64,000 nt of DNA. Source: Candidatus Moraniibacteriota bacterium (GTDB lineage: Bacteria > Patescibacteriota > Minisyncoccia > Moranbacterales > DUUL01). The notes below the pieces were generated by a model. The model saw only the letters and a list, made by a program, of their open reading frames with translations. It was not told the origin of the DNA and did no database searches. Made by a program: the position numbers and the translations under genes. Positions 2,604-51,537 of this stretch are shown one piece after another (within the stretch, counting starts at the first letter, position 1; each line of letters starts with the position of its first letter). The stretch is from positions 401,541 to 465,540 of the forward strand of contig JAXHLG010000002.1 in NCBI GenBank assembly GCA_034522495.1, given 5' to 3'.

Positions 2604-2609
2604 TAAGGA

Positions 2610-2750: not shown

Positions 2751-2757
2751 TAACAAA

Positions 2758-2796
2758 ATTATTCTAATTATTCTAATTGCTCTAATTATTCTAAAA
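2758..2796. repeat. About 40-bp block of ctaattatt-type short repeats, copy 1 (upstream of rplJ)
   Basis: aattattctaattattctaattgctctaattattctaaaa. A near-identical direct copy lies at 3457-3498. Confidence 0.8.
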
Positions 2797-2890
2797 TTTT
2801 GTTTTTTGGAGCTTGTTAATTTATTAGGTCAATTAGTATAATTAGAAATTTTGTTAAAATGTTTGTATGTTAAAATGTTAAAATGATTTT

Positions 2891-7950: not shown

Positions 7951-7973
7951 ATGTCTTTTGATTTTTTTATACT

Positions 7974-8013
7974 CCAAGGTTCAACCTTCGGCCAGCCGAA
8001 GGTTGAACCTTGG
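7974..8013. repeat. REP-like palindrome, CCAAGGTTCAACCTTCGG variant
   Basis: ccaaggttcaaccttcgg-ccag-ccgaaggttgaaccttgg, lying between two GT genes of the same operon. Confidence 0.9.
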
Positions 8014-8030
8014 TCGTTGCCTATATTCAC

Positions 8031-11000: not shown

Positions 11001-11010
11001 TTTTGAAAAA

Positions 11011-20842: not shown

Positions 20843-22174
20843 ATCACTCGTGTCCGGTTCACAAATCCCACAAACAAGCCTGTTTTCCGCCGCTTCTTTT
20901 AAAATTTTGCAATTCAGGATTACTAAACAGCTCAACCATGGGAGTTTTAGTTAGGACTGACACGTTCAAAATTTGTAATATTTCGTAGAGGTTCTTTTCA
21001 ATCTTCCATTGTTTTTTGAAAATGGCTACTACAAGATAAGCGCAAATGGCAATGCAGATTTGGGTTTTTACCGCGTTCTCTGAGCGGCCCCAGAAGGCTT
21101 TGATCTTGAGATGCTGCTTGATCCACTTGAAAAACAATTCAATTTGCCAGCGGTGCTTGTACAGGGCGGCTATTTTCTCAGCAGAAAGATTAAAATCGTT
21201 GCTCAAGTAAGTGAAATACTTTTTGCTTTCTTGATCAAAGAATTTAATCCTCCTTAATTTCTCCGGATACCTCTTAGAGCTTTTCCAATTGCTAAGCTTG
21301 ATTATCTGATCGCAGCAAATCCCTGTTCCTTTTTCCTTCCTGTTGGAATAAATTCTTTCAAATCCCAGACACTCCTTGGCTCTGATAACAAAGAAGGCTC
21401 CTTTTCGGTGAATTTTGTAAAGCCTGCCGTAATCTATGTAGCCCCGGTCCAGAATGTAATGCGCTTCCGGTTCAATTTCGATCGAATCCAGGAATTCCAG
21501 ATCGTGCCTTTTGGCGCTAGTGATTTCAAACATGGCGGGAATATTGCCGTCAAGGTCCATTTGCAGATTCAGCTTCACCCCGGCTCTTACAGTCTTGAGC
21601 TTGGCCCAGGAGAAAAGAGAAAGGCAGAGTTCGATTACCGATGAATCTATAATGTAGCAAGCCCCGTTCAGTTCCAAATTAAAATTGTCATCGCCTGCAT
21701 ACAGCTTTCTGGCTTTATCAATCAATATTCCCGCCAGGTCCCTGTAAATCCTCCAATCCCTTTTTTCGCTGGCATCGGAAAGAGTTGATCTTGAAATAAT
21801 GCTGGAAAAACCCAAGTTGCGGATTTTTCCCTGCTGGGAGCTCAAGCAGTTGACAACGTCCCGGAGACTTTCCCGATGAGAAATCTGCCCAAAAAAGAGA
21901 GCTAGGAATTGATTCCAGCAAGTAAGTTTTTTTACTGCCGAATTGCCCCGGTATCTATCCACGCATCGGTTGAATTCATAACGTGGGATGTGATCTGCAA
22001 GCTGAGAAAGAACATATTTTCCATGATACATTTGAGTAATTGATAATTGCTTAAAAAACAATATCAATTATCCCATTATTTCCGTTCAAGCCAAAAAAAA
22101 TTCTTGTCCCTTGATTTTGGCTCTGGAAAGCCAAAATCAGGAGATGAGAAAAAAATTAACCGGACACGAGTGAT
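20843..22174 (-). mobile_element. IS4-family insertion sequence, copy 1 (1332 bp)
   Basis: Perfect 17-bp terminal inverted repeats ATCACTCGTGTCCGGTT. Flanking direct repeat attaac (6 bp; 10 bp atattaacat if the ends are taken as CACTCG). Single DDE transposase ORF. Confidence 0.9.
20859..22067 (-). CDS. IS4-family DDE transposase
   Basis: 402 aa. DUF4372-like N-terminus (YHGKYVLSQLADHIPRYEFNRCVDRYRGN), D in YIIDSSVIE, D in YILDRGYIDY, and Y(2)R(3)E(6)K in YKHRWQIELFFKWIK. Confidence 0.85.
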   Translation of the reverse strand: MILFFKQLSITQMYHGKYVLSQLADHIPRYEFNRCVDRYRGNSAVKKLTCWNQFLALFFGQISHRESLRDVVNCLSSQQGKIRNLGFSSIISRSTLSDASEKRDWRIYRDLAGILIDKARKLYAGDDNFNLELNGACYIIDSSVIELCLSLFSWAKLKTVRAGVKLNLQMDLDGNIPAMFEITSAKRHDLEFLDSIEIEPEAHYILDRGYIDYGRLYKIHRKGAFFVIRAKECLGFERIYSNRKEKGTGICCDQIIKLSNWKSSKRYPEKLRRIKFFDQESKKYFTYLSNDFNLSAEKIAALYKHRWQIELFFKWIKQHLKIKAFWGRSENAVKTQICIAICAYLVVAIFKKQWKIEKNLYEILQILNVSVLTKTPMVELFSNPELQNFKRSGGKQACLWDL

Positions 22175-22268
22175 ATTAACATATAAACATTTTAACATAT
22201 TATCATATTATCATTTTATCATATGAACATTTAAGCATTCAAACATACAAGCATCTAAACATTTAATC
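22175..22268. repeat. 8-mer tract, right part
   Basis: attaacatataaacattttaacatattatcatattatcattttatcatatgaacatttaagcattcaaacatacaagcatctaaacatttaatc. Confidence 0.75.
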
Positions 22269-22349
22269 AATTTTATTTTTAGGGACTGCTTCCAAACACC
22301 ATTTCGTTACGAAATTTCCAATTATTTCTTGAACTCGGGAACTAAAAAC

Positions 22350-22372
22350 TTGACAGGATTTATTATAGATAT
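22350..22372 (+). promoter_or_regulatory. Orphaned -35 half of the promoter of the 148-aa anchor-protein gene, split by IS copy 2
   Basis: TTGACA (22350-22355) plus 17 nt, then the IS end. The homologous intact promoter is at 32271-32298. Confidence 0.4.
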
Positions 22373-23704
22373 ATCACTCGTGTCCGGTTCACAAATCCCA
22401 CAAACAAGCCTGTTTTCCGCCGCTTCTTTTAAAATTTTGCAATTCAGGATTACTAAACAGCTCAACCATGGGAGTTTTAGTTAGGACTGACACGTTCAAA
22501 ATTTGTAATATTTCGTAGAGGTTCTTTTCAATCTTCCATTGTTTTTTGAAAATGGCTACTACAAGATAAGCGCAAATGGCAATGCAGATTTGGGTTTTTA
22601 CCGCGTTCTCTGAGCGGCCCCAGAAGGCTTTGATCTTGAGATGCTGCTTGATCCACTTGAAAAACAATTCAATTTGCCAGCGGTGCTTGTACAGGGCGGC
22701 TATTTTCTCAGCAGAAAGATTAAAATCGTTGCTCAAGTAAGTGAAATACTTTTTGCTTTCTTGATCAAAGAATTTAATCCTCCTTAATTTCTCCGGATAC
22801 CTCTTAGAGCTTTTCCAATTGCTAAGCTTGATTATCTGATCGCAGCAAATCCCTGTTCCTTTTTCCTTCCTGTTGGAATAAATTCTTTCAAATCCCAGAC
22901 ACTCCTTGGCTCTGATAACAAAGAAGGCTCCTTTTCGGTGAATTTTGTAAAGCCTGCCGTAATCTATGTAGCCCCGGTCCAGAATGTAATGCGCTTCCGG
23001 TTCAATTTCGATCGAATCCAGGAATTCCAGATCGTGCCTTTTGGCGCTAGTGATTTCAAACATGGCGGGAATATTGCCGTCAAGGTCCATTTGCAGATTC
23101 AGCTTCACCCCGGCTCTTACAGTCTTGAGCTTGGCCCAGGAGAAAAGAGAAAGGCAGAGTTCGATTACCGATGAATCTATAATGTAGCAAGCCCCGTTCA
23201 GTTCCAAATTAAAATTGTCATCGCCTGCATACAGCTTTCTGGCTTTATCAATCAATATTCCCGCCAGGTCCCTGTAAATCCTCCAATCCCTTTTTTCGCT
23301 GGCATCGGAAAGAGTTGATCTTGAAATAATGCTGGAAAAACCCAAGTTGCGGATTTTTCCCTGCTGGGAGCTCAAGCAGTTGACAACGTCCCGGAGACTT
23401 TCCCGATGAGAAATCTGCCCAAAAAAGAGAGCTAGGAATTGATTCCAGCAAGTAAGTTTTTTTACTGCCGAATTGCCCCGGTATCTATCCACGCATCGGT
23501 TGAATTCATAACGTGGGATGTGATCTGCAAGCTGAGAAAGAACATATTTTCCATGATACATTTGAGTAATTGATAATTGCTTAAAAAACAATATCAATTA
23601 TCCCATTATTTCCGTTCAAGCCAAAAAAAATTCTTGTCCCTTGATTTTGGCTCTGGAAAGCCAAAATCAGGAGATGAGAAAAAAATTAACCGGACACGAG
23701 TGAT
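22373..23704 (-). mobile_element. IS4-family insertion sequence, copy 2 (1332 bp), same orientation as copy 1
   Basis: Same 17-bp TIRs. Flanking direct repeat agatat (or atagatatat). The transposase and all listed spurious ORFs translate identically to copy 1. Confidence 0.9.
22389..23597 (-). CDS. IS4-family DDE transposase (identical to 20859..22067)
   Basis: 402-aa translation identical to copy 1. Confidence 0.85.
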   Translation of the reverse strand: MILFFKQLSITQMYHGKYVLSQLADHIPRYEFNRCVDRYRGNSAVKKLTCWNQFLALFFGQISHRESLRDVVNCLSSQQGKIRNLGFSSIISRSTLSDASEKRDWRIYRDLAGILIDKARKLYAGDDNFNLELNGACYIIDSSVIELCLSLFSWAKLKTVRAGVKLNLQMDLDGNIPAMFEITSAKRHDLEFLDSIEIEPEAHYILDRGYIDYGRLYKIHRKGAFFVIRAKECLGFERIYSNRKEKGTGICCDQIIKLSNWKSSKRYPEKLRRIKFFDQESKKYFTYLSNDFNLSAEKIAALYKHRWQIELFFKWIKQHLKIKAFWGRSENAVKTQICIAICAYLVVAIFKKQWKIEKNLYEILQILNVSVLTKTPMVELFSNPELQNFKRSGGKQACLWDL

Positions 23705-24202: not shown

Positions 24203-26879
24203 CTTTTCGGCGCGCGCGAAAAAAGCAGTTGAAAAAAGCGGGTCAACAGCCCCATAAAACGCCAAGGCCGTTCATATATATCTTAGGGAAAAAGCTATGA
24301 AATATTTAAATAAATCAAGTCCGATATCCTGTATATTATTATTGGCCTTGTTTTCCCTCCTCTTTTCCTTCTCAACGCTAGGCGGCAATAACGCTTCAGC
24401 TGTTGTTATGATACCCTCGGGAGAAGACGGCGCTGAGGATAAAACAATTGCTGATATTAGCATCAGCCAATTAAAAGTGGTTGAACAAAAAGACCATCAA
24501 GTCAAGCTGTCTTTTGCTGTTTACAATCTTTCCAACAGATTTCAGCCGGATGTTGAATATGGCATAAGATTATTCAGGAAAGAGGCGGTTGAGTCGGAGC
24601 ACGGCACGGAAGAAGAGGGAACAAGCTCCAAAGAGTTTCACCCGGGGGATGTCTTGTATGAGAAAATAGATCCCGAGAGCATGGATTTATCTCCAGGAGA
24701 GAAAATTGACAAGAAAGAGGCCTACGAGATGCCTTCCCATCTGGAAGGAGAATTCCTAATCCAGTTATTTGCCAAGACTTCCTCCGGCCTGTTTTTGGGT
24801 ATGGCCGAAACTGAAGTTGTAAAAATGGAAAAAGGAGAAGACGGCATAGAGCTGGACCACAAAGAATGCCGCCTTCTGAAGAATTCCAATACAGAAGAAG
24901 AATACGCTCTGTCCGATCCGATATACATTAATTCTCAAGAGCAATTAGCCATCAAATGCTTATTGAGCAATGATTCCCCGGAAACAAGAACGATAATGCC
25001 CGCCTTTGATATTTATGAAGAAAGCATTTTCGGGGAAAAAATAGAAACGGAATCAAACCCCGGCAAGATTTCAATTGAACCGAAAGAATCCAGAGAGATA
25101 AGCCTGAATGTACCGAAAACTAAATCCCCCGGTTCGTATTATGCTGCTTTGCATTTAAAGCAGGGGGAAGCGGCGGTTTCTAACAGGATATATTTCAACT
25201 ATGCCGTAGAAGGGTTATCCGCCTCCATTTATGACATCAAGGCGAATCAAGAAGAAAATCAAAACATCTCGGTTTCTTTTTACTGGAGCGGAATCAGGGA
25301 GAATTTTGCTCCCGGGACTCAAGAAAGGCCAAGCCCAAAAAATCAAGACCTTCAACTAAGCCTAAGAATCGTTGACCAGCATGGAAAAGACTGCGCTTCT
25401 CCCGTAACAAAATCTTTAAGCGGCGAAAAGAATTACTCGGAATTTTCTACTTCCGTGATCAAAAGCTGCGCTTCTCCTTACGCGGAAGCCAAGATAAAAA
25501 ACCAAAAAGGCGAGGTTCTCGACGAAATTAAAGTTAGAGCCGCCTCCATGGAAAAGAAAGAAAAGAAAGAAGCTGCTCCCGGGGAAAACGCTTCCGAGGA
25601 CAACGCCCTGATTTTAATTGCCTCAGCTCTGATTGTTTTGTTCTTGATTTTTCTTCTGTGGTGGCTTTTGGTTAAGAAAAAGCTGCTCAAAAAGAGCTTT
25701 CTGGCCTTGTTTGTCTTTTTGTCAGCTTTTGTTTTTCTGGCATGGGATATTGGAGAGGTGAACGCGGGAGGTTGGAAATGGCTTGGTTATCGTATGCTAG
25801 GATATACTAGTCAACCTAACCACTGGGAACCTAAGGATTATTACACATATCATTATTATGAAGATGAAAGCTACCCCGCTCAGGCGGATGATGAGATTAC
25901 CGGTCAAATTTATGGGAAACTTTATGGAAAGCACTGTAGCGGCTGGATGAAGGTTAACGGTGTTACGGTGTGGCGCCTACGGTTTCCAACAGACTTTGGC
26001 AGTGGTTCTGGTCCTGGTACTTATATTAGCGGTCAAAGGAGCTGGCCGCATGGATGTGAAGGTACTTACCGGGTTGAATATGAGTGGATGTTTAATTATG
26101 ATAGTAGTGGTGATGGTGTTTGCAACGAAACAGCTGAAGGAGATAACACTCAGAAGTATAAAATTATTTGCGATGAAGCCGAAGATTATCGCTGCCGCTG
26201 GAATAGCGTGTGGAAATACGACGCCTGCGGCTGCCCCGACGAATATATTGAAAGCTGCCCCACCGGATACTGCGATTACGGAGGCGACGTGGATTATTAT
26301 TGTTCCGGAGACAAGCTGATGGGCGTGTATGATTACGTAAGACAAGGCTGCCGGGCGGGAGCTTGCTATACTGGCAATGTATGGCACAACTCCTGCGGAT
26401 CATTTGTAAAAGAGGATTGCTCTGATCTGCCCAACTATTGCGAAGAGTGGGATGATGACTGGACTTGTAAAGACGAAACCACGAAAATGAAAAGCAGGGA
26501 ATGCTATAATTCCGGCTGTTCTTCCGCCTCTTGCTACGGAGATTCATATACTGAAACTAAAGAAGAGGAATGCTTGAAAGACGGAGTTCAGGGCAGATGC
26601 ATCAACGGCGCTTGTTTCTATCAAGGAGCCTGCGGCAGCGCAAATGACTCGGATCCGACGTGCGAGGCGCCGAAAGACAATTTATGTTTAATTAATTTTT
26701 ATGACGACCCAGTGGTCCGGTACGACAGCGCTGACGGCGATAAGTCAAAAGACAAATACTACTGGACCTGCGAAGGAGCCGATCAAGACAGCGATCAGGA
26801 TGATGCTAATTGCAGCGTGGAAAGAGATTGCCAAGTAACGTCAGAGGGCTGGCGCGAGGCGTCGTTTTGATTGTTCTGC
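24203..26879 (+). repeat. Tandem repeat unit 1 (2677 bp)
   Basis: Starts at cttttcggcgcgcgcgaaaaaagc. The same junction recurs at 26880 and 29560. Confidence 0.95.
24297..26870 (+). CDS. Surface protein, copy 1 (857 aa): signal peptide, about 430-aa N-terminal domain, TM hairpin, Cys-rich C-terminal domain
   Basis: SP LLLALFSLLFSFSTLGGNNASA. TM1 ALILIASALIVLFLIFLLWWLLV, loop KKKLLKKS, TM2 FLALFVFLSAFVFLAW. 28 Cys after TM2 (my count). Terminal CGSAN...LC...YWTC...CSV module. Confidence 0.8.
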   Translation: MKYLNKSSPISCILLLALFSLLFSFSTLGGNNASAVVMIPSGEDGAEDKTIADISISQLKVVEQKDHQVKLSFAVYNLSNRFQPDVEYGIRLFRKEAVESEHGTEEEGTSSKEFHPGDVLYEKIDPESMDLSPGEKIDKKEAYEMPSHLEGEFLIQLFAKTSSGLFLGMAETEVVKMEKGEDGIELDHKECRLLKNSNTEEEYALSDPIYINSQEQLAIKCLLSNDSPETRTIMPAFDIYEESIFGEKIETESNPGKISIEPKESREISLNVPKTKSPGSYYAALHLKQGEAAVSNRIYFNYAVEGLSASIYDIKANQEENQNISVSFYWSGIRENFAPGTQERPSPKNQDLQLSLRIVDQHGKDCASPVTKSLSGEKNYSEFSTSVIKSCASPYAEAKIKNQKGEVLDEIKVRAASMEKKEKKEAAPGENASEDNALILIASALIVLFLIFLLWWLLVKKKLLKKSFLALFVFLSAFVFLAWDIGEVNAGGWKWLGYRMLGYTSQPNHWEPKDYYTYHYYEDESYPAQADDEITGQIYGKLYGKHCSGWMKVNGVTVWRLRFPTDFGSGSGPGTYISGQRSWPHGCEGTYRVEYEWMFNYDSSGDGVCNETAEGDNTQKYKIICDEAEDYRCRWNSVWKYDACGCPDEYIESCPTGYCDYGGDVDYYCSGDKLMGVYDYVRQGCRAGACYTGNVWHNSCGSFVKEDCSDLPNYCEEWDDDWTCKDETTKMKSRECYNSGCSSASCYGDSYTETKEEECLKDGVQGRCINGACFYQGACGSANDSDPTCEAPKDNLCLINFYDDPVVRYDSADGDKSKDKYYWTCEGADQDSDQDDANCSVERDCQVTSEGWREASF

Positions 26880-29559
26880 CTTTTCGGCGCGCGCGAAAAA
26901 AGCAGTTGAAAAAAGCGGGTCAACAGCCCCATAAAACGCCAAGGCCGTTCATATATATCTTAGGGAAAAAGCTATGAAATATTTAAATAAATCAAGTCCG
27001 ATATCCTGTATATTATTATTGGCCTTGTTTTCCCTCCTCTTTTCCTTCTCAACGCTAGGCGGCAATAACGCTTCAGCTGTTGTTATGATACCCTCGGGAG
27101 AAGACGGCGCTGAGGATAAAACAATTGCTGATATTAGCATCAGCCAATTAAAAGTGGTTGAACAAAAAGACCATCAAGTCAAGCTGTCTTTTGCTGTTTA
27201 CAATCTTTCCAACAGATTTCAGCCGGATGTTGAATATGGCATAAGATTATTCAGGAAAGAGGCGGTTGAGTCGGAGCACGGCACGGAAGAAGAGGGAACA
27301 AGCTCCAAAGAGTTTCACCCGGGGGATGTCTTGTATGAGAAAATAGATCCCGAGAGCATGGATTTATCTCCAGGAGAGAAAATTGACAAGAAAGAGGCCT
27401 ACGAGATGCCTTCCCATCTGGAAGGAGAATTCCTAATCCAGTTATTTGCCAAGACTTCCTCCGGCCTGTTTTTGGGTATGGCCGAAACTGAAGTTGTAAA
27501 AATGGAAAAAGGAGAAGACGGCATAGAGCTGGACCACAAAGAATGCCGCCTTCTGAAGAATTCCAATACAGAAGAAGAATACGCTCTGTCCGATCCGATA
27601 TACATTAATTCTCAAGAGCAATTAGCCATCAAATGCTTATTGAGCAATGATTCCCCGGAAACAAGAACGATAATGCCCGCCTTTGATATTTATGAAGAAA
27701 GCATTTTCGGGGAAAAAATAGAAACGGAATCAAACCCCGGCAAGATTTCAATTGAACCGAAAGAATCCAGAGAGATAAGCCTGAATGTACCGAAAACTAA
27801 ATCCCCCGGTTCGTATTATGCTGCTTTGCATTTAAAGCAGGGGGAAGCGGCGGTTTCTAACAGGATATATTTCAACTATGCCGTAGAAGGGTTATCCGCC
27901 TCCATTTATGACATCAAGGCGAATCAAGAAGAAAATCAAAACATCTCGGTTTCTTTTTACTGGAGCGGAATCAGGGAGAATTTTGCTCCCGGGACTCAAG
28001 AAAGGCCAAGCCCAAAAAATCAAGACCTTCAACTAAGCCTAAGAATCGTTGACCAGCATGGAAAAGACTGCGCTTCTCCCGTAACAAAATCTTTAAGCGG
28101 CGAAAAGAATTACTCGGAATTTTCTACTTCCGTGATCAAAAGCTGCGCTTCTCCTTACGCGGAAGCCAAGATAAAAAACCAAAAAGGCGAGGTTCTCGAC
28201 GAAATTAAAGTTAGAGCCGCCTCCATGGAAAAGAAAGAAAAGAAAGAAGCTGCTCCCGGGGAAAACGCTTCCGAGGACAACGCCCTGATTTTAATTGCCT
28301 CAGCTCTGATTGTTTTGTTCTTGATTTTTCTTCTGTGGTGGCTTTTGGTTAAGAAAAAGCTGCTCAAAAAGAGCTTTCTGGCCTTATTTGTCTTTTTGTC
28401 AGCTTTTGTTTTTCTGGCATGGGATATTGGAGAGGTGAACGCGGGAGGTTGGAAATGGCTTGGTTATCAAATGCTAGGATATAGTTATCAGGATGGACAT
28501 ACTTATGTATATCATTATTATAATGATGAAAACTACTCCTGGTCGGTGGATAATTGGCAGGCGGATGATGAGATCACCGGTCGAATTTTTGGGAGACTTT
28601 ATGGAAAGCACTGCAATGGCTGGATGAAGGTTAACGGTGTTACGGTGTGGCGCCTACGGTTTCCAACAGACTTTGGTAGTAGTTCTGGTCCTGGTACTTC
28701 TGTTAGCGGTCAAAGGAGCTGGCCGCATGGATGCGCCGAAGGTACCTATCGGGTTAAATATGAGTGGATGTTTAATTATGATAGTAGTGGTGATGGTGTT
28801 TGCAACGAAACAGCTGAAGGAGATCTCACTCAGAAGTATAAAATTATTTGCGATGAAGCCGAAGATTATCGCTGCCGCCGGAATAGCGTGTGGAAATACG
28901 ACGCCTGCGACTGTCCCGACGAATATATTGAAAGCTGCCCCACCGGATACTGCGATTACGGAGGCGACGTGGATTATTATTGTTCCGGAGACAAGCTGAT
29001 GGGCGTGTATGATTACGTAAGACAAGGCTGCCGGGCGGGAGCTTGCTATACTGGCAATGTATGGCACAACTCCTGCGGATCATTTGTAAAAGAGGATTGC
29101 TCTGATCTGCCCAACTATTGCGAAGAGTGGGATGATGACTGGACTTGTAAAGACGAAACCACGAAAATGAAAAGCAGGGAATGCTATAATTCCGGCTGTT
29201 CTTCCGCCTCTTGCTACGGAGATTCATATACTGAAACTAAAGAAGAGGAATGCTTGAAAGACGGAGTTCAGGGCAGATGCATCAACGGCGCTTGTTTCTA
29301 TCAAGGAGCCTGCGGCAGCGCAAATGAATCGGAGTCGACATGCGAGGCGCCGAAAGACAATTTATGTTTAATTAATTTTTATGACGACCCAGTGGTCCGG
29401 TACGACAGCGCTGACGGCGATAAGTCAAAAGACAAATACTACTGGACCTGCGAAGGAGCCGATCAAGACAGCGATCAGGATGATGCTAATTGCAGCGTGG
29501 AAAGAGATTGCCAAGTAACGTCAGAGGGCTGGCGCGAGGCGTCGTTTTGATTGTTCTGC
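26880..29559 (+). repeat. Tandem repeat unit 2 (2680 bp)
   Basis: ORF start offset 26974-24297 = 2677. Identical upstream 94 nt. Confidence 0.95.
26974..29550 (+). CDS. Surface protein, copy 2 (858 aa)
   Basis: First 498 aa identical to copy 1. Different variable cassette. Private substitutions CRRNS, ACDCP, ANESESTCE. Confidence 0.8.
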   Translation: MKYLNKSSPISCILLLALFSLLFSFSTLGGNNASAVVMIPSGEDGAEDKTIADISISQLKVVEQKDHQVKLSFAVYNLSNRFQPDVEYGIRLFRKEAVESEHGTEEEGTSSKEFHPGDVLYEKIDPESMDLSPGEKIDKKEAYEMPSHLEGEFLIQLFAKTSSGLFLGMAETEVVKMEKGEDGIELDHKECRLLKNSNTEEEYALSDPIYINSQEQLAIKCLLSNDSPETRTIMPAFDIYEESIFGEKIETESNPGKISIEPKESREISLNVPKTKSPGSYYAALHLKQGEAAVSNRIYFNYAVEGLSASIYDIKANQEENQNISVSFYWSGIRENFAPGTQERPSPKNQDLQLSLRIVDQHGKDCASPVTKSLSGEKNYSEFSTSVIKSCASPYAEAKIKNQKGEVLDEIKVRAASMEKKEKKEAAPGENASEDNALILIASALIVLFLIFLLWWLLVKKKLLKKSFLALFVFLSAFVFLAWDIGEVNAGGWKWLGYQMLGYSYQDGHTYVYHYYNDENYSWSVDNWQADDEITGRIFGRLYGKHCNGWMKVNGVTVWRLRFPTDFGSSSGPGTSVSGQRSWPHGCAEGTYRVKYEWMFNYDSSGDGVCNETAEGDLTQKYKIICDEAEDYRCRRNSVWKYDACDCPDEYIESCPTGYCDYGGDVDYYCSGDKLMGVYDYVRQGCRAGACYTGNVWHNSCGSFVKEDCSDLPNYCEEWDDDWTCKDETTKMKSRECYNSGCSSASCYGDSYTETKEEECLKDGVQGRCINGACFYQGACGSANESESTCEAPKDNLCLINFYDDPVVRYDSADGDKSKDKYYWTCEGADQDSDQDDANCSVERDCQVTSEGWREASF

Positions 29560-32235
29560 CTTTTCGGCGCGCGCGAAAAAAGCAGTTGAAAAAAGCGGGT
29601 CAACAGCCCCATAAAACGCCAAGGCCGTTCATATATATCTTAGGGAAAAAGCTATGAAATATTTAAATAAATCAAGTCCGATATCCTGTATATTATTATT
29701 GGCCTTGTTTTCCCTCCTCTTTTCCTTCTCAACGCTAGGCGGCAATAACGCTTCAGCTGTTGTTATGATACCCTCGGGAGAAGACGGCGCTGAGGATAAA
29801 ACAATTGCTGATATTAGCATCAGCCAATTAAAAGTGGTTGAACAAAAAGACCATCAAGTCAAGCTGTCTTTTGCTGTTTACAATCTTTCCAACAGATTTC
29901 AGCCGGATGTTGAATATGGCATAAGATTATTCAGGAAAGAGGCGGTTGAGTCGGAGCACGGCACGGAAGAAGAGGGAACAAGCTCCAAAGAGTTTCACCC
30001 GGGGGATGTCTTGTATGAGAAAATAGATCCCGAGAGCATGGATTTATCTCCAGGAGAGAAAATTGACAAGAAAGAGGCCTACGAGATGCCTTCCCATCTG
30101 GAAGGAGAATTCCTAATCCAGTTATTTGCCAAGACTTCCTCCGGCCTGTTTTTGGGTATGGCCGAAACTGAAGTTGTAAAAATGGAAAAAGGAGAAGACG
30201 GCATAGAGCTGGACCACAAAGAATGCCGCCTTCTGAAGAATTCCAATACAGAAGAAGAATACGCTCTGTCCGATCCGATATACATTAATTCTCAAGAGCA
30301 ATTAGCCATCAAATGCTTATTGAGCAATGATTCCCCGGAAACAAGAACGATAATGCCCGCCTTTGATATTTATGAAGAAAGCATTTTCGGGGAAAAAATA
30401 GAAACGGAATCAAACCCCGGCAAGATTTCAATTGAACCGAAAGAATCCAGAGAGATAAGCCTGAATGTACCGAAAACTAAATCCCCCGGTTCGTATTATG
30501 CTGCTTTGCATTTAAAGCAGGGGGAAGCGGCGGTTTCTAACAGGATATATTTCAACTATGCCGTAGAAGGGTTATCCGCCTCCATTTATGACATCAAGGC
30601 GAATCAAGAAGAAAATCAAAACATCTCGGTTTCTTTTTACTGGAGCGGAATCAGGGAGAATTTTGCTCCCGGGACTCAAGAAAGGCCAAGCCCAAAAAAT
30701 CAAGACCTTCAACTAAGCCTAAGAATCGTTGACCAGCATGGAAAAGACTGCGCTTCTCCCGTAACAAAATCTTTAAGCGGCGAAAAGAATTACTCGGAAT
30801 TTTCTACTTCCGTGATCAAAAGCTGCGCTTCTCCTTACGCGGAAGCCAAGATAAAAAACCAAAAAGGCGAGGTTCTCGACGAAATTAAAGTTAGAGCCGC
30901 CTCCATGGAAAAGAAAGAAAAGAAAGAAGCTGCTCCCGGGGAAAACGCTTCCGAGGACAACGCCCTGATTTTAATTGCCTCAGCTCTGATTGTTTTGTTC
31001 TTGATTTTTCTTCTGTGGTGGCTTTTGGTTAAGAAAAAGCTGCTCAAAAAGAGCTTTCTGGCCTTATTTGTCTTTTTGTCAGCTTTTGTTTTTCTGGCAT
31101 GGGATATTGGAGAGGTGAACGCGGGAGGTTGGAAATGGCTTGGTTATCAAATGCTAGGATATAGTTATCAGGATGGACATACTTATGTATATCATTATTA
31201 TAATGATGAAAACTACTCCTGGTCGGTGGATAATTGGCAGGCGGATGATGAGATCACCGGTCGAATTTTTGGGAGACTTTATGGAAAGCACTGCAATGGC
31301 TGGATGAAGGTTAACGGTGTTACGGTGTGGCGCCTACGGTTTCCAACAGACTTTGGTAGTAGTTCTGGTCCTGGTACTTCTGTTAGCGGTCAAAGGAGCT
31401 GGCCGCATGGATGCGCCGAAGGTACCTATCGGGTTAAATATGAGTGGATGTTTAATTATGATAGTAGTGGTGATGGTGTTTGCAACGAAACAGCTGAAGG
31501 AGATCTCACTCAGAAGTATAAAATTATTTGCGATGAAGCCGAAGATTATCGCTGCCGCTGGAATAGCGTGTGGAAATACGACGCCTGCGGCTGCCCCGAC
31601 GAATATATTGAAAGCTGCCCCACCGGATACTGCGATTACGGAGGCGACGTGGATTATTATTGTTCCGGAGACAAGCTGATGGGCGTGTATGATTACGTAA
31701 GACAAGGCTGCCGGGCGGGAGCTTGCTATACTGGCAATGTATGGCACAACTCCTGCGGATCATTTGTAAAAGAGGATTGCTCTGATCTGCCCAACTATTG
31801 CGAAGAGTGGGATGATGACTGGACTTGTAAAGACGAAACCACGAAAATGAAAAGCAGGGAATGCTATAATTCCGGCTGTTCTTCCGCCTCTTGCTACGGA
31901 GATTCATATACTGAAACTAAAGAAGAGGAATGCTTGAAAGACGGAGTTCAGGGCAGATGCATCAACGGCGCTTGTTTCTATCAAGGAGCCTGCGGCAGCG
32001 CAAATGACTCGGATCCGACGTGCGAGGCGCCGAAAGACAATTTATGTTTAATTAATTTTTATGACGACCCAGTGGTCCGGTACGACAGCGCTGACGGCGA
32101 TAAGTCAAAAGACAAATACTACTGGACCTGCGAAGGAGCCGATCAAGACAGCGATCAGGATGATGCTAATTGCAGCGTGGAAAGAGATTGCCAAGTAACG
32201 TCAGAGGGCTGGCGCGAGGCGTCGTTTTGATTGTT
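29560..32235 (+). repeat. Tandem repeat unit 3 (ends just after the stop codon)
   Basis: ORF start offset 29654-26974 = 2680. Homology ends at tgattgtt|aataaagg. Confidence 0.95.
29654..32230 (+). CDS. Surface protein, copy 3 (858 aa), chimeric between copy 2 (5' part) and copy 1 (3' part)
   Basis: The variable cassette equals copy 2. Downstream sites (CRWNS, ACGCP, ANDSDPTCE) equal copy 1. Confidence 0.8.
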   Translation: MKYLNKSSPISCILLLALFSLLFSFSTLGGNNASAVVMIPSGEDGAEDKTIADISISQLKVVEQKDHQVKLSFAVYNLSNRFQPDVEYGIRLFRKEAVESEHGTEEEGTSSKEFHPGDVLYEKIDPESMDLSPGEKIDKKEAYEMPSHLEGEFLIQLFAKTSSGLFLGMAETEVVKMEKGEDGIELDHKECRLLKNSNTEEEYALSDPIYINSQEQLAIKCLLSNDSPETRTIMPAFDIYEESIFGEKIETESNPGKISIEPKESREISLNVPKTKSPGSYYAALHLKQGEAAVSNRIYFNYAVEGLSASIYDIKANQEENQNISVSFYWSGIRENFAPGTQERPSPKNQDLQLSLRIVDQHGKDCASPVTKSLSGEKNYSEFSTSVIKSCASPYAEAKIKNQKGEVLDEIKVRAASMEKKEKKEAAPGENASEDNALILIASALIVLFLIFLLWWLLVKKKLLKKSFLALFVFLSAFVFLAWDIGEVNAGGWKWLGYQMLGYSYQDGHTYVYHYYNDENYSWSVDNWQADDEITGRIFGRLYGKHCNGWMKVNGVTVWRLRFPTDFGSSSGPGTSVSGQRSWPHGCAEGTYRVKYEWMFNYDSSGDGVCNETAEGDLTQKYKIICDEAEDYRCRWNSVWKYDACGCPDEYIESCPTGYCDYGGDVDYYCSGDKLMGVYDYVRQGCRAGACYTGNVWHNSCGSFVKEDCSDLPNYCEEWDDDWTCKDETTKMKSRECYNSGCSSASCYGDSYTETKEEECLKDGVQGRCINGACFYQGACGSANDSDPTCEAPKDNLCLINFYDDPVVRYDSADGDKSKDKYYWTCEGADQDSDQDDANCSVERDCQVTSEGWREASF

Positions 32236-32270: not shown

Positions 32271-32298
32271 TTGACAGGTTTTTCTCGAGATGTATTAT
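32271..32298 (+). promoter_or_regulatory. Sigma70-like promoter of the 130-aa anchor-protein gene
   Basis: TTGACA (32271-32276), 16-nt spacer, TATTAT (32293-32298). Homologous to the split promoter at 22350 / 23705. Confidence 0.45.
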
Positions 32299-32330: not shown

Positions 32331-32723
32331 ATGCAAAATAAAAAAATGGTTATATTAATAGTTTTGATTGTTTTAGTCCTCTTGTGTGCAGGAGTTTTTG
32401 GTTATTTGATTTATGCGGAAAAAGCTGAGCAAAAAAAGTCGGGACGAAACAATCAGGATTTGTTAGATCAAGAAAAGGAGGATGAGGGAAAAGAAGAAAA
32501 AAGCTGGGGTGATATGTCGGATGAAGAAAAGGATAAAATTTTGAACGAGAGAGTTCCCTTGGAAGAGTCATCAGGTGGCACTAATGATAATAGTGAAACA
32601 GGTGGCGGGAACACCAAGATTCATTCAGAAGAAGAGGTGCAGGGGTTGCTTCTTAATGAAAGAGAGTCTGCGCCGGAAGGAGGACCCACCAAAGAGGACG
32701 CACTCAAGGTTTTAAATGAATAA
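32331..32723 (+). CDS. Small N-terminally membrane-anchored protein, paralog family member 2
   Basis: MQNKKMVILIVLIVLVLLCAGVFGYLIYAEK followed by an acidic, low-complexity ectodomain. Confidence 0.65.
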   Translation: MQNKKMVILIVLIVLVLLCAGVFGYLIYAEKAEQKKSGRNNQDLLDQEKEDEGKEEKSWGDMSDEEKDKILNERVPLEESSGGTNDNSETGGGNTKIHSEEEVQGLLLNERESAPEGGPTKEDALKVLNE

Positions 32724-32762: not shown

Positions 32763-34889
32763 ATGAAAAAAATAGTAAATTTTGCGAATTGGTCGCTGGG
32801 AGTAGCTTTGCTTGGCATGTTCGGAGGTTTGATCCTTCAAAAAGTTGAGGCATGGAGTGAGCCGCCTGATAGTCCACCCAATTCAAATGTTGGAGCGCCT
32901 CTTAATACCGGAGAGCAAGGACAAATGAAACAAGCCAAGTTGATTTTGAACATGCCGGCTGATGATGGCAGTGTCCAAACAAGCGGCTTGCTTGTTCCTT
33001 ACGGGAAAGTAGGATTAGGAACATTGTTTCCGGAGTCCAAGTTGCACATAGAAGAAAGCCTTACAACTGATACCTCTGGATACGGGGATGTCACTATGGA
33101 CGCTACCATTAGAACCGGAGCTGTTAATTATGATGGCGGTTATGGTGACTGGCCGGCCGGATTTTCTGTAAAGGTCAATGATGTCGACACTAATCTTCCC
33201 GGCGGCAGTGCAGGAATAGAGGTTTATAGCGGTATTGACGGTGTTTCCAGAGCTACTATGTTAGTTAATGCAGACTGGCAGGGAAAGACAGGAAAGCCAA
33301 CCTGGGGCGCGCTCTTGGGAGTGGTTCAAGATAGAATCAACACTCGCGGATTTGCATCTTGGATTGAAGATGGTTTGGATAACAAAGTAGATGGAAGCCA
33401 TGCTTATCTAAGCAACAGGGATAGTGACGGAAAGCTATTTTCAGGAAAGTTCGAAGGAGACGTTTATGTAAGAGATGATTTAGGTGTCGGAACAAGAGAT
33501 CCCAATGAAAAGTTGGATGTAAGAGGCAACATTGTTGCTAGCGGAACCATTTGCGATACCAATGGATGTATTGGAGATGGAGGAGGATCTTCTTTGTGGA
33601 ATCAAAACGGGAGTGATATTTATTATAATGGGGGTAACGTTGGCATTGGCAGAAACAATCCGCAGGATGAACTCGATGTTAATGGAGATCTATTGTTAAG
33701 CAAAGAAGATATTTATGCGGATACTTTTAGTTTCGGCAATGCAGCTAAAGTCTATACGGGAAGAAATGACGGATATTTGCTTCTTGCGGGGGGTAATGCC
33801 CAAGGGGACACAACAAATGGATCCGTCTTGGCGTTAACCGGGAAAAATATAAGCGATAGCTTTAGCGGTGTTCAGCCAAGGGATGACGGGGTAATAGCAG
33901 CTGGGATAAAAGGAAACTCTAACGGTTTTTACGTTTATGATTACAATACTTTTCAATGGCGTTTTAGCGTAAACGCCGAAAGAACATATGTTCATGATAA
34001 CCTTGGTGTCGGAACTGAAAATCCGCTGGGTAAGCTCCACGTAGAGGAGGAGAAGGTAACTAACGTAGCTGGAACGGATTATACTATGGATGCCACTATT
34101 CGGACCGGAGCGGTTAATTATACGGGCTATGGAGATTATCCCGCCGGCTTGTCGGTCAAAGTCAATAGTATTAGCAATGATGTGCCTGGAGGGACTGCTG
34201 GAGTAGAAGTTTACAGCGGTAAAGATAATGTTTCAAGGGCTACATTGCTGGTAAATGGGGATTGGGACAACAACGGAAGAGATACCTGGGGAGCTATTTT
34301 GGGAGTAGTGAAAGATGGAAATAATGTTAGAGGCTTGAATACTTGGATAGAGAGTGATTTAGGTGGCAGCAGCAAGTCCGGTGACGCTAAATTAAGTTAT
34401 AAGGATCCAAGCGGAAACCTTTATTCGGCATACTTTAGTGATTATGTATATGTAAACGACGATTTAAGGGTGAATGGGACGGTGCACCATAAAGGATTAA
34501 ATAATTACTCGGATATGAGGTTGAAGCAATCTGTAAATTCAATAGAGGGGTCTTCGTTGGAAAAACTGACCAAGCTTAGAGGAGTTTCTTTTGAATGGAA
34601 AGATAATCCGGGAGAAAAAGAAATTGGATTGATCGCTCAAGAAGTAGAAAAAATATACCCGGAATTAGTTGAGGAGGACAGAGAAGGAATGAAGGGAGTA
34701 CAATATTCTGCATTGGTAGCTCCAATTATAGAGGCTGTTAAAGAGCTAAAAGAAAGCTTTAGCGAAGTTAAAGACAAAATAGCAATTATCTTTGAAAGAC
34801 AAGATCGCCAAGCAGACTTATTAGAGCAACAAAATGAGCGGATTAAAGAGCTGGAAAGCAAAATAGAGGAATTGAAAAAAGCAGAATAA
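32763..34889 (+). CDS. Secreted tail-fibre-like protein with a C-terminal Peptidase_S74 intramolecular chaperone domain
   Basis: Signal/anchor WSLGVALLGMFGGLILQKVEA. Internal duplication of about 165 aa. C-terminus from 34509: SDMRLKQSVNSIEG..LRGVSFEWKD..EIGLIAQEVEKIYPELV..VQYSALVAPIIEAVKEL plus a coiled coil. Confidence 0.8.
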   Translation: MKKIVNFANWSLGVALLGMFGGLILQKVEAWSEPPDSPPNSNVGAPLNTGEQGQMKQAKLILNMPADDGSVQTSGLLVPYGKVGLGTLFPESKLHIEESLTTDTSGYGDVTMDATIRTGAVNYDGGYGDWPAGFSVKVNDVDTNLPGGSAGIEVYSGIDGVSRATMLVNADWQGKTGKPTWGALLGVVQDRINTRGFASWIEDGLDNKVDGSHAYLSNRDSDGKLFSGKFEGDVYVRDDLGVGTRDPNEKLDVRGNIVASGTICDTNGCIGDGGGSSLWNQNGSDIYYNGGNVGIGRNNPQDELDVNGDLLLSKEDIYADTFSFGNAAKVYTGRNDGYLLLAGGNAQGDTTNGSVLALTGKNISDSFSGVQPRDDGVIAAGIKGNSNGFYVYDYNTFQWRFSVNAERTYVHDNLGVGTENPLGKLHVEEEKVTNVAGTDYTMDATIRTGAVNYTGYGDYPAGLSVKVNSISNDVPGGTAGVEVYSGKDNVSRATLLVNGDWDNNGRDTWGAILGVVKDGNNVRGLNTWIESDLGGSSKSGDAKLSYKDPSGNLYSAYFSDYVYVNDDLRVNGTVHHKGLNNYSDMRLKQSVNSIEGSSLEKLTKLRGVSFEWKDNPGEKEIGLIAQEVEKIYPELVEEDREGMKGVQYSALVAPIIEAVKELKESFSEVKDKIAIIFERQDRQADLLEQQNERIKELESKIEELKKAE

Positions 34890-34908: not shown

Positions 34909-35244
34909 ATGAAAAATGTAGTTTTAATTTTAATTGTTATCTTTGTTGTTGCTAGTGGATATTTTGGGTGGATGATTTACAAGGGGGACTCTAATGATAA
35001 AGAGGTGTCAGACAAAAATGTTTCTTCACCTAAAGAATCCCAAAAAGACAACCTTGATTCAACAAGCAATAACACCCAAATAAATACTAAACCGAGCAAT
35101 GGAGAAGATGATCCTGTAGGCACAAAAGATGCTGAATCTAGAACTTTGCCCGGTGGAGCGAACCGTGACACAACAACTGAAGTTGAAAGTAAAGAGGAAA
35201 GTGAAACGTCGAAGCCTTTTCCAAGGGTTCCGCAGGATGGTTAA
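34909..35244 (+). CDS. Small N-terminally membrane-anchored protein, paralog family member 3 (more distant)
   Basis: MKNVVLILIVIFVVASGYFGWMIYKG followed by a low-complexity S/T/D/E-rich tail. Confidence 0.55.
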   Translation: MKNVVLILIVIFVVASGYFGWMIYKGDSNDKEVSDKNVSSPKESQKDNLDSTSNNTQINTKPSNGEDDPVGTKDAESRTLPGGANRDTTTEVESKEESETSKPFPRVPQDG

Positions 35245-35311: not shown

Positions 35312-35339
35312 AAAAATGGCCTAAAAAGGCCATTTTTTT
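35312..35339 (+). terminator. Intrinsic terminator closing the surface island
   Basis: aaaaatggcc-taaaaa-ggccattttt followed by ttg. Confidence 0.7.
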
Positions 35340-35364
35340 GTGGCTTGAAAATGAATGAAAATGT

Positions 35365-35415
35365 TTGACAAGGGTAACATTGTGGAATATAATGTAATCA
35401 AGTGGTGAGAAGTGG
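35365..35415 (+). promoter_or_regulatory. mraZ/dcw promoter with candidate MraZ operator boxes
   Basis: TTGACA (35365-35370), 17-nt spacer, TATAAT (35388-35393). GTGG boxes at 35382, 35402 and 35412, spaced 20 and 10 nt. Confidence 0.5.
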
Positions 35416-36092: not shown

Positions 36093-37154
36093 ATGCATAT
36101 TCCGGTTTTGTTGGGGGAGGCGGTTGAAAAATTAAATTTAAAAAAAGGGGATGCGGTTGTGGACGCCACTCTGGGGGGAGGCGGGCACAGCCGGGAAATA
36201 ATGAATAAAATTGGCAAAAATGGTATATTAGTTGCCTTTGACCTGGATTCAGAAGCTGTCTCTGAATTTGAAAAATCTCTGAAAAAACAAAAAAAGGAGC
36301 CGGAAGTTTTTTTGAAAATTGAAAATTTTGCCAAAATCGACGAAGTTCTTGAATCGGAAAATTTGAGCAAAGTTGATGCGATTCTTGCTGACTTGGGCTG
36401 GCGGTCCGATCAAATGGAGAATGAGAATTATGGAATGAGCTTTCAAAAGGACTCTCCTCTGGATATGCGACTAGCCCCGAACCATACGGTACTGGGCAAG
36501 GCTCAGAACCATGCGGATCGGGGCAAGGTCCAGAACCATGCGGTACGGGGCAACGCCCAGAACCATGCGGTACGGGGCAACGCCCAGAACCATGCGGTAC
36601 TGGGTAAAACAGGAGGGTTGACGGCTGGAGAAATTGTCAATACTTGGAAAGCTGAAGATTTAAAAAGATTGTTCAAGGAATATGGAGAAGAGAAATTTGC
36701 CGGAAGAGCGGCCAAGGCTATTGAAAAACAAAGAAAAATCAAGGAAATAGAGACAACGAAAGAGTTGTCTGAGGTAATTAAAAAAGCTATTGGCGGGCAT
36801 TACAAAACAGCTAAGATTCATCCGGCTACCCGAGTCTTCCAAGCTTTAAGAATTGCAGTTAATAATGAGTTGGAGAATTTGCGGGAATTTTTGGAAGCCA
36901 GTCTGAGGATACTCAAGCCGGGAGGGAGGATTGCAATTATCAGTTTCCACTCGCTGGAGGACAGGACGGTTAAAAAATTCTTTCGGGTAAATGCCGGGGG
37001 ATGTATTTGCCCAAAAGAATTTCCGGTGTGCGTTTGCGGCAAGAAGCCAAAGATTAAAATCATCACCAAAAAGCCGATTACTCCGACTGATGAAGAAATT
37101 AGACGGAACCCGAGGTCTCGGAGCGCCAAGATGCGCGTAGCGGAAAAATTATAA
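36093..37154 (+). CDS. rsmH: 16S rRNA (cytosine1402-N4)-methyltransferase RsmH with an in-frame repeat insertion
   Basis: HIPVLLGEAVEKL, DATLGGGGHS, DLGWRSDQ, PLDMRL, ISFHSLEDRTVKKFF, plus dcw context. Confidence 0.95.
   Translation: MHIPVLLGEAVEKLNLKKGDAVVDATLGGGGHSREIMNKIGKNGILVAFDLDSEAVSEFEKSLKKQKKEPEVFLKIENFAKIDEVLESENLSKVDAILADLGWRSDQMENENYGMSFQKDSPLDMRLAPNHTVLGKAQNHADRGKVQNHAVRGNAQNHAVRGNAQNHAVLGKTGGLTAGEIVNTWKAEDLKRLFKEYGEEKFAGRAAKAIEKQRKIKEIETTKELSEVIKKAIGGHYKTAKIHPATRVFQALRIAVNNELENLREFLEASLRILKPGGRIAIISFHSLEDRTVKKFFRVNAGGCICPKEFPVCVCGKKPKIKIITKKPITPTDEEIRRNPRSRSAKMRVAEKL
36479..36613 (+). repeat. In-frame tandem repeat, 27-bp unit x about 5, inside rsmH
   Basis: Units start at 36479, 36506, 36533, 36560, 36587 (gaaccatgcggtacggggcaacgccca). 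They encode QNHAVRGNA-type nonapeptides. Confidence 0.9.
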
Positions 37155-50253: not shown

Positions 50254-51528
50254 ATGAAAAAATTCAATCTTATGTTCAGCAAGAGCAAGAAAGAGTCCGA
50301 AGTGGTTTTGGCTTTGGATATCGGGACAGAGTTTGTCAAAAGCATTATTTTCAAGCCCATAGACAACAACCAGAAAGGAATAATTATCGGCGTGGGTACG
50401 GCCAGGCAAAAGGTGGGCAACATGACTTCTGGCGCGGTAAGCGATATCAACGGCGTAATAAAAACCTGCTCCAAATCGATTGAAAAAGCCAAAAATCAGG
50501 CCGGCATAGAAGAAGTGAAAGATTGCATAGTCGGAATTGCCGGAGAATTCGTCAAAGGAACCACCACCACGGTTCATTACGAAAGAGCCAAGCCGGAAGT
50601 AAGAATTGATATGCCGGAGCTGAAAAACATTGTTCAAAAAATCCAATGGAAGGCTCTGGAAAGAATCAGAAAGCAGTTTTCTTATGAAACCGGCCACAGC
50701 GATATTGATGTTAAATTAATCAATGCTTCCATCGTGGGAGTAAAAATCGACGGCTACCGCGTAACCAATCCGATGGGATTCCAAGGGAAAGACGTTTCCA
50801 TCGGAATTTTCAACGCTTACGCGCCGATGATTCACTTGGGGGCGATCGAGGCTATTGTCAAAGAGCTCGGGCTGAAGCTGCATTCAATCGCCGCTGAACC
50901 GTATGCTGTAGTTCAAGGCACCGGCTTGAAAGAAAGCCCGGATTTCGGAGGAATTTTTATTGATATCGGCGGTGGGACCACGGATGTTGCGGTGGTTAAA
51001 AACGGAGGACTTGAAGGAACTTCCATGTTTGCCCTGGGCGGCCGGGCATTCACCAAAAGATTAGTGTCCGAATACGGGTTGACTTTTAATCAAGCGGAGG
51101 AGTTGAAACTAATGTATGCCAAAAATGAGCTGAAGGACGATGAAGCCGAAGATGTGCACAAAGTATTGAGAAATGATTGCAAGGTTTGGCTGTCCGGCGT
51201 AGAAATAGCTCTGGAAAATTTCTGTTCTTCCAACTTGGATGTTCTGCCGTCTCGAATTTTTCTTTGCGGAGGAGGAAGCGGATTGCCGGGAATTTATGAG
51301 CAATTAAGCTCCGCCGATTGGGTTGGCAATCTTCCTTTTGCAAGCAAGCCGAAAATAAGCTTTGTTCAGCCCAGGGACATGGTTTATATGGTTGATCAAA
51401 CCAAGTCTTTGACCAATCCCCAGGATGTAACGCCAATGGGCTTGGCTACGCTTACTCTTGACTTGGACGATAAAGACAACGTGATGTCGAGTGTTTTGAA
51501 AAGGGCTGTTAAAATAATTCAAAATTAA
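50254..51528 (+). CDS. ftsA: Cell division protein FtsA (actin-like ATPase)
   Basis: VLALDIGTEFVK (phosphate 1), IDIGGGTTDVAV (phosphate 2), LCGGGSGLPGI (adenosine). Confidence 0.8.
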   Translation: MKKFNLMFSKSKKESEVVLALDIGTEFVKSIIFKPIDNNQKGIIIGVGTARQKVGNMTSGAVSDINGVIKTCSKSIEKAKNQAGIEEVKDCIVGIAGEFVKGTTTTVHYERAKPEVRIDMPELKNIVQKIQWKALERIRKQFSYETGHSDIDVKLINASIVGVKIDGYRVTNPMGFQGKDVSIGIFNAYAPMIHLGAIEAIVKELGLKLHSIAAEPYAVVQGTGLKESPDFGGIFIDIGGGTTDVAVVKNGGLEGTSMFALGGRAFTKRLVSEYGLTFNQAEELKLMYAKNELKDDEAEDVHKVLRNDCKVWLSGVEIALENFCSSNLDVLPSRIFLCGGGSGLPGIYEQLSSADWVGNLPFASKPKISFVQPRDMVYMVDQTKSLTNPQDVTPMGLATLTLDLDDKDNVMSSVLKRAVKIIQN

Positions 51529-51537
51529 TTCATTTTT

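Follow-up and report, generated by a model that had tools for sequence, protein, structure and literature searches.

The 64,000-nucleotide stretch of a Candidatus Moraniibacteriota genome analysed here (contig JAXHLG010000002.1, positions 401,541 to 465,540; hereafter the window) contains, near its middle, a gene for a 708-amino-acid (aa) protein ending in a Peptidase_S74 (S74) chaperone domain. This gene is likely to encode a chromosomal cellular fibre which is built like a phage tail fibre and which serves contact with another cell or a surface. An original prediction made from the DNA alone had also read the protein as a cellular fibre, and this reading is supported. A contact role would be expected in this uncultured, ultra-small and probably episymbiotic bacterium. 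Trimerisation, self-cleavage, surface display and adhesion are predicted for it from the computational analysis of the gene and its relatives.

Architecture of the fibre and its chaperone end

The open reading frame (ORF) lies on the + strand at exactly the coordinates originally reported. Its parts are listed below, with the confidence of the AlphaFold2 (AF2) models, which are of monomers only, given as the predicted local distance difference test (pLDDT).

32763-34889, + strand: fibre gene, ORF of 708 aa
32763-32852, + strand: leader, aa 1-30 (MKK, a hydrophobic helix and VEA↓W; AF2 helix over residues 2-27)
32853-32948, + strand: N-module, aa 31-62, Pro-rich (WSEPPDSPPNSNVGAPLNTGEQGQMKQAKLIL)
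33000-33053, + strand: capping motif 1 (GKVGLGTLFPESKLHI), of the V-G-x-G/N-T-x-x-P-x-x-x-L type; pLDDT 73-78
33054-33467, + strand: domain A copy 1, aa 98-235, rare and all-beta
33468-33686, + strand: capping motif 2, Cys loop (ICDTNGCIG...SLW) and capping motif 3
33687-33986, + strand: middle region, aa 309-408 (~100 aa), common to the protein P0102
33987-34046, + strand: capping motif 4 (DNLGVGTENPLGKLHV); pLDDT 74-76
34047-34457, + strand: domain A copy 2, aa 429-565, directly N-terminal of the predicted cleavage site
34458-34508, + strand: strand preceding the S74 domain (DDLRVNGTVHHKGLNNY), covered by the alignments to 8jov, 6f45 and MyRF 7dc3
34509-34886, + strand: S74 chaperone and C-terminal coiled coil (aa 648-708), a piece of 126 aa

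A single Pfam family is significant in the fibre, namely Peptidase_S74 (PF13884), which matches residues 583-636 (nucleotides (nt) 34509-34670) with an E value of 5e-16 and 59.2 bits, against a cut-off of 22 bits, over profile positions 1-57 of 58. The domain starts at nt 34509, where it had been placed from the DNA, and the profile search that had been proposed as a check gave a strong match. In a genome-wide scan it scored 63.6 bits and was the one S74 domain in the whole 1.33-Mb genome. The catalytic S-D-x-x-x-K motif is intact (SDMRLK, residues 583-588), and S583, D584 and K588 each reach at least 90% conservation when 55 relatives are aligned. Among PDB sequences, phmmer retrieved the tail-fibre protein 8jov, the distal fibre of phage S16 (6f45) and the intramolecular chaperone auto-processing (ICA) domain of MyRF (7dc3). 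SDMRLK is aligned to SDERLK, SDRRIK and ADLRAK in these three, the last of which presumably reflects a Ser-to-Ala mutant used for the MyRF crystal, and the conserved Ser that had been expected is aligned with that of the solved S74 chaperones.

Modelling of the full-length chain from the same alignment of 55 relatives gave a mean pLDDT of 56, with residues 580-708 at 91-97. Residues 648-707 are modelled as one long helix of 60 residues (pLDDT 94-97), in agreement with the coiled coil anticipated after the S74 domain. A Foldseek search with the S74 part returned the MyRF ICA first (E 1e-4, TM-score 0.64), followed by the K1F endosialidase 3gw6 and GA-1 3gud, and the latter two, together with 8jov and 6f45, bear out the suggested likeness to the chaperones of endosialidases and phage fibres. 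Trimerisation of the preceding chain by the S74 domain, followed by self-cutting, is established for the family. In the fibre, cleavage is predicted between Y582 and S583, which would release a 126-aa chaperone piece. S74 self-cleavage in a cellular protein has been documented with Bd3182 and its S782A mutant (PMC10769870).

Four capping motifs with the pattern G-[VIL]-G-[TR]-x-x-P-x-x-x-L-x-[VI] lie at residues 81, 238, 291 and 412, and these are modelled at pLDDT 66-79 in the full-length chain, whereas the stretches between them are not. The third motif aligns with the copy in MyRF. The second aligns with 8ol4, a structure of a mosaic adhesive trimer (MAT) fibre of Bdellovibrio, at an E value of 0.11 that is not significant alone, while a profile built from domain A and the motifs on either side of it matches Bd2133 (8ond) at an E value of 0.004. 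The spacing within the motif is that of MyRF, one residue longer than in the consensus printed in the MAT paper. The Cys loop between motifs 2 and 3 holds the only two Cys residues of the fibre (264 and 269), and the unit made up of the loop and both motifs is 57% identical to a repeat of the Patescibacteria protein P0002.

An internal duplication of about 165 aa had been noted originally, and it is real: residues 83-242 and 413-569 (nt ~33009-33488 and 33999-34469) share 56% identity over 160 aa (E 4e-51). The original coordinates agree with these to within ~60 nt, except that the second copy had been extended too far, into the start of the S74 domain. The DNA of the two copies shares just one 46-nt stretch at 80% identity, which argues that the duplication is old and is not a cassette or diversity-generating retroelement (DGR) pair, and a DGR or cassette-switching origin was ruled out on this ground. 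Domain A itself is rare: among 1.84 billion representatives, a full HMMER scan found only four other proteins that cover the domain (P0102, P0119, P0122 and P0134), the remaining ~59 matches being to the capping motif alone. Neither domain A nor the middle region has a match in Pfam at E 10, phmmer found no match for copy 2 among PDB sequences, and AF2 modelling of domain A from a 6-sequence alignment reached a pLDDT of 39. Copy 2 is predicted, from its position in the sequence, to become the distal tip after processing, and this role fits the placement of domain A directly before the S74 region in P0102 and P0122 as well.

P0102 is the closest relative of both domain A and the middle region. 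Its contig (L045, ENA contig k141_18128, 1-13701) appears archaeal and not bacterial. It encodes a FlaI/TadA-type ATPase, a neighbouring protein whose class III signal (KRGLSEIIVILILIALVIV) is of the archaeal style, and an intein-containing gyrB. There are hints here of a tip domain common to small symbionts across the domains of life.

At the other end of the chain, the N-terminal signal or anchor of the original prediction corresponds to a leader that starts with a basic stretch and whose hydrophobic part ends in VEA↓W. The Ala at position -1 is conserved in at least 90% of the family in an alignment of 25 N-termini, and together with the small residue at -3 it is compatible with signal peptidase I; the leader is probably a Sec signal peptide which is cut after VEA. 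The adjoining N-module has no match in Pfam, even at E 10, its AF2 model is of low confidence, and leader and N-module have no model in Pfam or NCBIfam. Residues W31, P34, P39, N42, Q54 and K56 of the N-module are invariant in 25 family members. All six occur in this fibre within the family signature (leader ...YW.GV..G..LG.S.QF..A ↓ W-x-x-P-x4-P-x2-N-x3-P-x-N/T-x5-Q-x-K), and the family profile scores 93 bits on it. Pfam and NCBIfam scans revealed no recognisable membrane, lipid or cell-wall anchor in the mature fibre beyond the leader. A class III signal (G↓F-T-L-x-E) is likewise not present, the regular expression that matches 12 pilin-like ORFs of the genome missing the fibre.

Partner genes, relatives and genomic setting

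The fibre gene is preceded by the gene of a 130-aa membrane protein and followed by that of a 111-aa one, the intergenic gaps being 39 nt and 19 nt, respectively. The elements around it are as follows.

24297-32230, + strand: three tandem genes for surface proteins of 857/858 aa with a Cys-rich C-terminal part
32271-32298, + strand: promoter-like site TTGACA-16-TATTAT (11/12), upstream of the 130-aa membrane-protein gene
32331-32723, + strand: small bitopic membrane protein of 130 aa, with an N-terminal transmembrane (TM) helix, an acidic/Lys-rich tail and the C-terminal motif ...PTKEDALKVLNE
34909-35244, + strand: second small TM protein of 111 aa, a weak paralogue of the 130-aa protein without the C-terminal motif
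35314-35341, + strand: terminator-like hairpin (aatggcc-taaaaa-ggccatt and a T run), read directly and not listed by the pattern scan
35365-35393: consensus dcw promoter, downstream of the hairpin

No comparably good promoter site was found between the three genes, and the 130-aa gene, the fibre gene and the 111-aa gene probably form one transcription unit starting at the 32271-32298 site. The 130-aa protein matches no Pfam or NCBIfam family above the cut-off. At 15 of ~22 distinct N-module loci, an ORF of 95-149 aa on the same strand ends 10-85 bp upstream and predicts a protein with a TM helix at its N-terminus and a charged tail; the figure for gene-like ORFs of this genome under the same heuristic is two of 866 (0.2%). 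The loci are not phylogenetically independent and this enrichment is indicative only. A small one-helix membrane protein is thus the conserved upstream partner of N-module genes. The tails of these small proteins bear near the C-terminus a short and often repeated motif, S-x-(E/D)-(E/D)-[ILV]-x3-[LIM], of which PTKEDALKVLNE, DYEEEVNKIINQ and PEIIKSLTAP are examples.

Of 61 genomes from the same genus, family or order, 23 encode S74 domains, with up to five per genome and within ORFs as long as 4,025 aa, and such domains are therefore a regular feature of these small genomes. Matches to residues 1 to ~80 of the fibre occur in 17 of 60 related genomes; most of the matching proteins are small (104-461 aa), often encoded as tandem pairs, and they may or may not have an S74 end. 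Across the phylum the N-module is patchy, being found in 13 of 301 genomes in an even sample. In both genomes of the same genus (G001 and G002), the sole S74 gene codes for a mini-fibre of 194/198 aa that consists of leader, N-module, one degenerate motif, S74 domain and coiled coil. The mini-fibre is 47% identical to the 708-aa fibre over aa 1-56 and 50% identical over aa 572-690, so that the latter looks like a mini-fibre into which ~510 residues of shaft and tip have been inserted. Both loci (L020 (G001:C25) 7891-9898 and L021 (G002:C71) 9319-11333) hold a three-gene cassette, in which a small protein with a TM helix and acidic tail is followed by the mini-fibre and then directly by a Cys-rich secreted protein. 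The latter is homologous to the C-terminal part of the 858-aa proteins of the window (39% identity, E 3e-21), and the synteny with a Cys-rich surface gene that the original prediction had put forward for comparison is thereby found in the same genus. Once the leader and S74 cuts were made, a mature mini-fibre of ~50 residues would be left, for which a function is hard to imagine other than as a stub or adaptor. A word-based search for homologues of the mini-fibre N-terminus recovered nothing beyond the query.

The nearest homologue of the fibre among 5.8 billion proteins is the Patescibacteria protein P0002 (MEA3344507.1), with 35% identity over 40% of the length. Such entries, P0002 and P0100 among them, bear the automatic NCBI name 'tail fiber domain-containing protein' and resemble the fibre in leader and N-module, capping motifs, Cys-loop unit and S74 end, but none has the duplicated domain A. 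Literature searches found no study of these Patescibacteria entries and no paper tying S74 or tail-fibre-like proteins to Patescibacteria biology. P0002 is encoded (L047, GCA_034717615.1 contig, 1-3065) just downstream of a prepilin peptidase gene, three N_methyl pilin genes and a gene for a 104-aa TM protein with EVMDSLTAP repeats, and this adjacency was not seen at the other loci examined. Four genes directly downstream of N-module/S74 fibres (L004 360-1346 (-), L009 1837-2793 (+), L011 1796-2422 (+) and L047 5851-7800 (+)) encode proteins with a signal/TM start and the motif C..V.N......[FY][VI]PT.T..EW..F, followed by unrelated bodies, either Cys-rich or with GLUG repeats. The motif of these downstream partners (F/Y-V/I-P-T-x-T-x-x-E-W-x-x-F) has no Pfam family and does not occur in this genome.

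The rest of the window encodes housekeeping functions. The products include tetratricopeptide repeat proteins, glycosyltransferases, a release factor and FtsX, and further genes comprise mraZ-rsmH-ftsI-mur (dcw), a MacB/FtsX permease, PpiC, HtrA, ClpB, an FtsA-like protein, S11, RpoA, a RodZ-like protein and RecA. The 32 kb to each side of the fibre are thus cellular and hold no prophage. In line with the original observation that phage genes are missing nearby, no capsid, terminase, portal or integrase was found among the 34 larger window ORFs scanned, and Phage_sheath_1 and Phage_capsid (HK97) had no match in the whole genome. Matches to PHROGs near the fibre are limited to its own S74 end, and tblastn searches of 50,697 phage records covered at most 31% of the fibre, all inside aa ~450-680. 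The GC content of the fibre gene resembles that of its surroundings. The region upstream of mraZ differs in the relatives G001, G002 and G003, and the cassette is located after mraY in G002 and adjoins ugd/aspS in G001. As its place beside the dcw cluster is not kept in relatives, a tie of the fibre to cell division was ruled out.

Elsewhere in the window, two identical genes for 401/402-aa transposases (DDE_Tnp_1 and DUF4372, IS4-type) lie in direct orientation at 20859-23597, just upstream of the surface-protein island. Between its conserved blocks, RsmH contains a series of nearly identical nonapeptides in frame (KAQNHADRG / KVQNHAVRG ...), encoded at 36479-36613. The region 50254-53535 encodes an FtsA/PilM-like protein of 424 aa and then a 665-aa protein without a Pfam or PHROG family.

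Proposed assembly and alternative explanations

In the proposed mechanism, the 30-residue leader would carry the chain through the membrane and would probably be cut after VEA. The S74 chaperone and coiled coil would then bring three chains into register, and an intertwined shaft would fold from the C-terminal end backwards, after which Ser583, together with Lys588, would cut the Y582/S583 bond and free the chaperone piece. The mature fibre would span residues 31-582 (552 residues) and comprise the four capping motifs, the disulfide loop and the two beta domains of ~135 residues, of which the second copy of domain A, as the distal tip, may well be the ligand-binding part. The Pro-rich N-module would form the proximal end and dock the fibre to the cell, possibly via the upstream one-helix membrane protein, a partner suggested by the linkage of the two genes.

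Several points weigh against this reading. In the monomer model, the pLDDT stays below 45 for the shaft and for the two domain A copies, and it is gene order alone that suggests docking to the small membrane protein. In the alignment of N-termini the hydrophobic core of the leader is conserved too, and the leader may remain as a membrane anchor or special sorting signal. Such unusual conservation hints that the leader is more than a signal peptide to be discarded and, like the long coiled coil (60 aa), would also suit an S74 domain that does not cleave. That domain would persist as a permanent C-terminal trimerisation knob and coiled-coil stalk, in the manner of a trimeric coiled-coil adhesin, with the N-terminal helix as an uncleaved anchor. 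This arrangement is unlikely, however, as the S-D-x-x-x-K motif is intact and conserved, all experimentally tested S74 proteins with the motif cleave, including the cellular MAT Bd3182 (PMC10769870), and the Ala at -1 and small residue at -3 of the leader suit signal peptidase I. It is quite improbable that the fibre is instead released as a soluble secreted trimeric lectin or a bacteriocin-like factor acting at a distance. While cutting of the leader would leave it without a recognisable membrane, lipid or cell-wall anchor, the strict conservation of its N-module and the tight linkage to the small membrane-protein gene favour docking, and the similarly laid-out MAT fibres are surface-located (PMC10769870).

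A phage origin, either as the remnant of a decayed prophage or as a recently captured receptor-binding protein without a cellular role, is very unlikely. The S74 end does match 24 PHROG tail-fibre families and 644 phage records, the two IS4 copies 9-12 kb upstream indicate a recombinationally active region, and the position upstream of mraZ is not kept in relatives. Against this, phage genes are lacking from the 64 kb and the genome, phage matches are confined to aa ~450-680, the leader and N-module recur in many cellular proteins of this order that have no S74 domain, and a cassette with cellular partner genes is conserved in relatives, with a GC content of the gene like that of its surroundings. 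Prophage and extracellular contractile injection system (eCIS)/tailocin readings were rejected on the genome-wide lack of a sheath or HK97 capsid match. It is most unlikely that the protein belongs to a pilus-associated or contractile apparatus, as a type IV pilus tip adhesin or an eCIS/tailocin fibre: it lacks a class III (G↓FTLxE) signal, no sheath gene is present in the genome, whose pilin clusters are ~300 kb and >800 kb away, and ~20 other N-module loci contain no pilin-like ORF, even though P0002 adjoins a prepilin peptidase and three pilin genes and P0102 a FlaI/TadA-type ATPase. The distant pilin clusters and pilin-free N-module loci also rule out a type IV pilus link as a general feature.

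Beyond a single cellular contact fibre, it may tentatively be suggested that the protein exemplifies a hitherto undescribed modular system of surface fibres in Moranbacteria-type Patescibacteria, composed of a membrane dock, a fixed leader and N-module, and exchangeable shafts and tips. The one-helix protein with repeated S-x-E-E-hydrophobic-x3-hydrophobic tail motifs would be the dock into which N-module proteins plug, with an S74 chaperone folding and trimming many of them. Such a cassette would, in a single genus, span a range from a mature stub of 50 residues to the 552-residue fibre, and the rare tip domain would determine the partner cell that the episymbiont can grip. What is known of how ultra-small Patescibacteria recognise and hold their partner cells comes largely from a few cultivated Saccharibacteria, and the fibre is a candidate host-recognition determinant; a self-processing fibre with a swappable tip would parallel the prey-recognition fibres of Bdellovibrio. 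The leader/N-module signature finds related surface proteins in other Patescibacteria genomes, domain A could be used as a binding probe, and the N-module and small membrane protein constitute a predicted interaction pair. The N-module, the mini version with its Cys-rich gene, the upstream membrane protein and the rarity of the duplicated domain are points that go beyond the original prediction.

Comparison with known systems

Fibres and tailspikes of phages (K1F endosialidase 3GW6, GA-1 neck appendage 3GUD, T5 pb1 and S16 gp37 6F45) share with this fibre the S74 domain, its catalytic motif and predicted fold, as well as the logic of a trimer nucleated at the C-terminus and then released by its own activity. 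Unlike these, the fibre has no virion context and bears a Sec-type leader, which is not found in phage fibres, and N-terminal of ~aa 450 it has no relation to phage proteins. The ICA of MyRF (7DC3) is the best structural match, with a common S74 core and a preceding G-x-V-G-I-x-x-x-x-P-x-x-x-L-x-V-x-G motif. MyRF is, however, a eukaryotic membrane-bound transcription factor from which cleavage frees a nuclear fragment, and its biological role is unrelated.

The closest described system is the S74 subgroup of the MAT fibres of Bdellovibrio bacteriovorus, such as Bd3182 (Caulton et al. 2024, PMC10769870). MAT fibres are cellular proteins with a signal peptide, an S74 end with SDxxxK and a capping-loop motif, printed as V-G-G/N-pi-x-x-P-x-x-x-L and common to MyRF, and their self-cleavage and surface location have been determined experimentally (PMC10769870). 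MATs as a whole carry S74 or other tips and take part in contact with another bacterium. The fibre is likewise encoded by a chromosomal non-phage gene, with a probable signal peptide followed by a conserved N-terminal region, a shaft punctuated by the V-G-x-G/N-T-x-x-P-x-x-x-L capping motif and a C-terminal S74 domain with SDxxxK, and it would share with the MATs a modular design with exchangeable tips in an organism that, here probably, lives by contact with other bacteria. Direct sequence matches of its motif regions to the MAT structures 8ond, 8ojn and 8ol4 are weak. MATs have a beta-rich N-terminal domain of ~130 aa, to which the 30-aa leader and 32-aa Pro-rich module found here have no detectable relation, the MAT entries in the PDB being of tips only. 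This domain is probably replaced here by a different and much shorter module, and the fibre is not assigned to the MAT family for this reason. It is also shorter (708 aa vs ~1,000 aa) and has two copies of a rare globular domain where MATs have a long beta-helix, and a conserved small membrane-protein partner gene has not been reported for MATs. The lineages differ as well, the host of the MATs being a Gram-negative predator and that of the fibre a member of the Patescibacteria, with a monoderm-like envelope. The general design of the fibre is thus already known and similar genes are common in the phylum, so that the finding is on its own incremental, while the lineage-specific N-module, the conserved small membrane partner and the rare duplicated tip domain set it apart.

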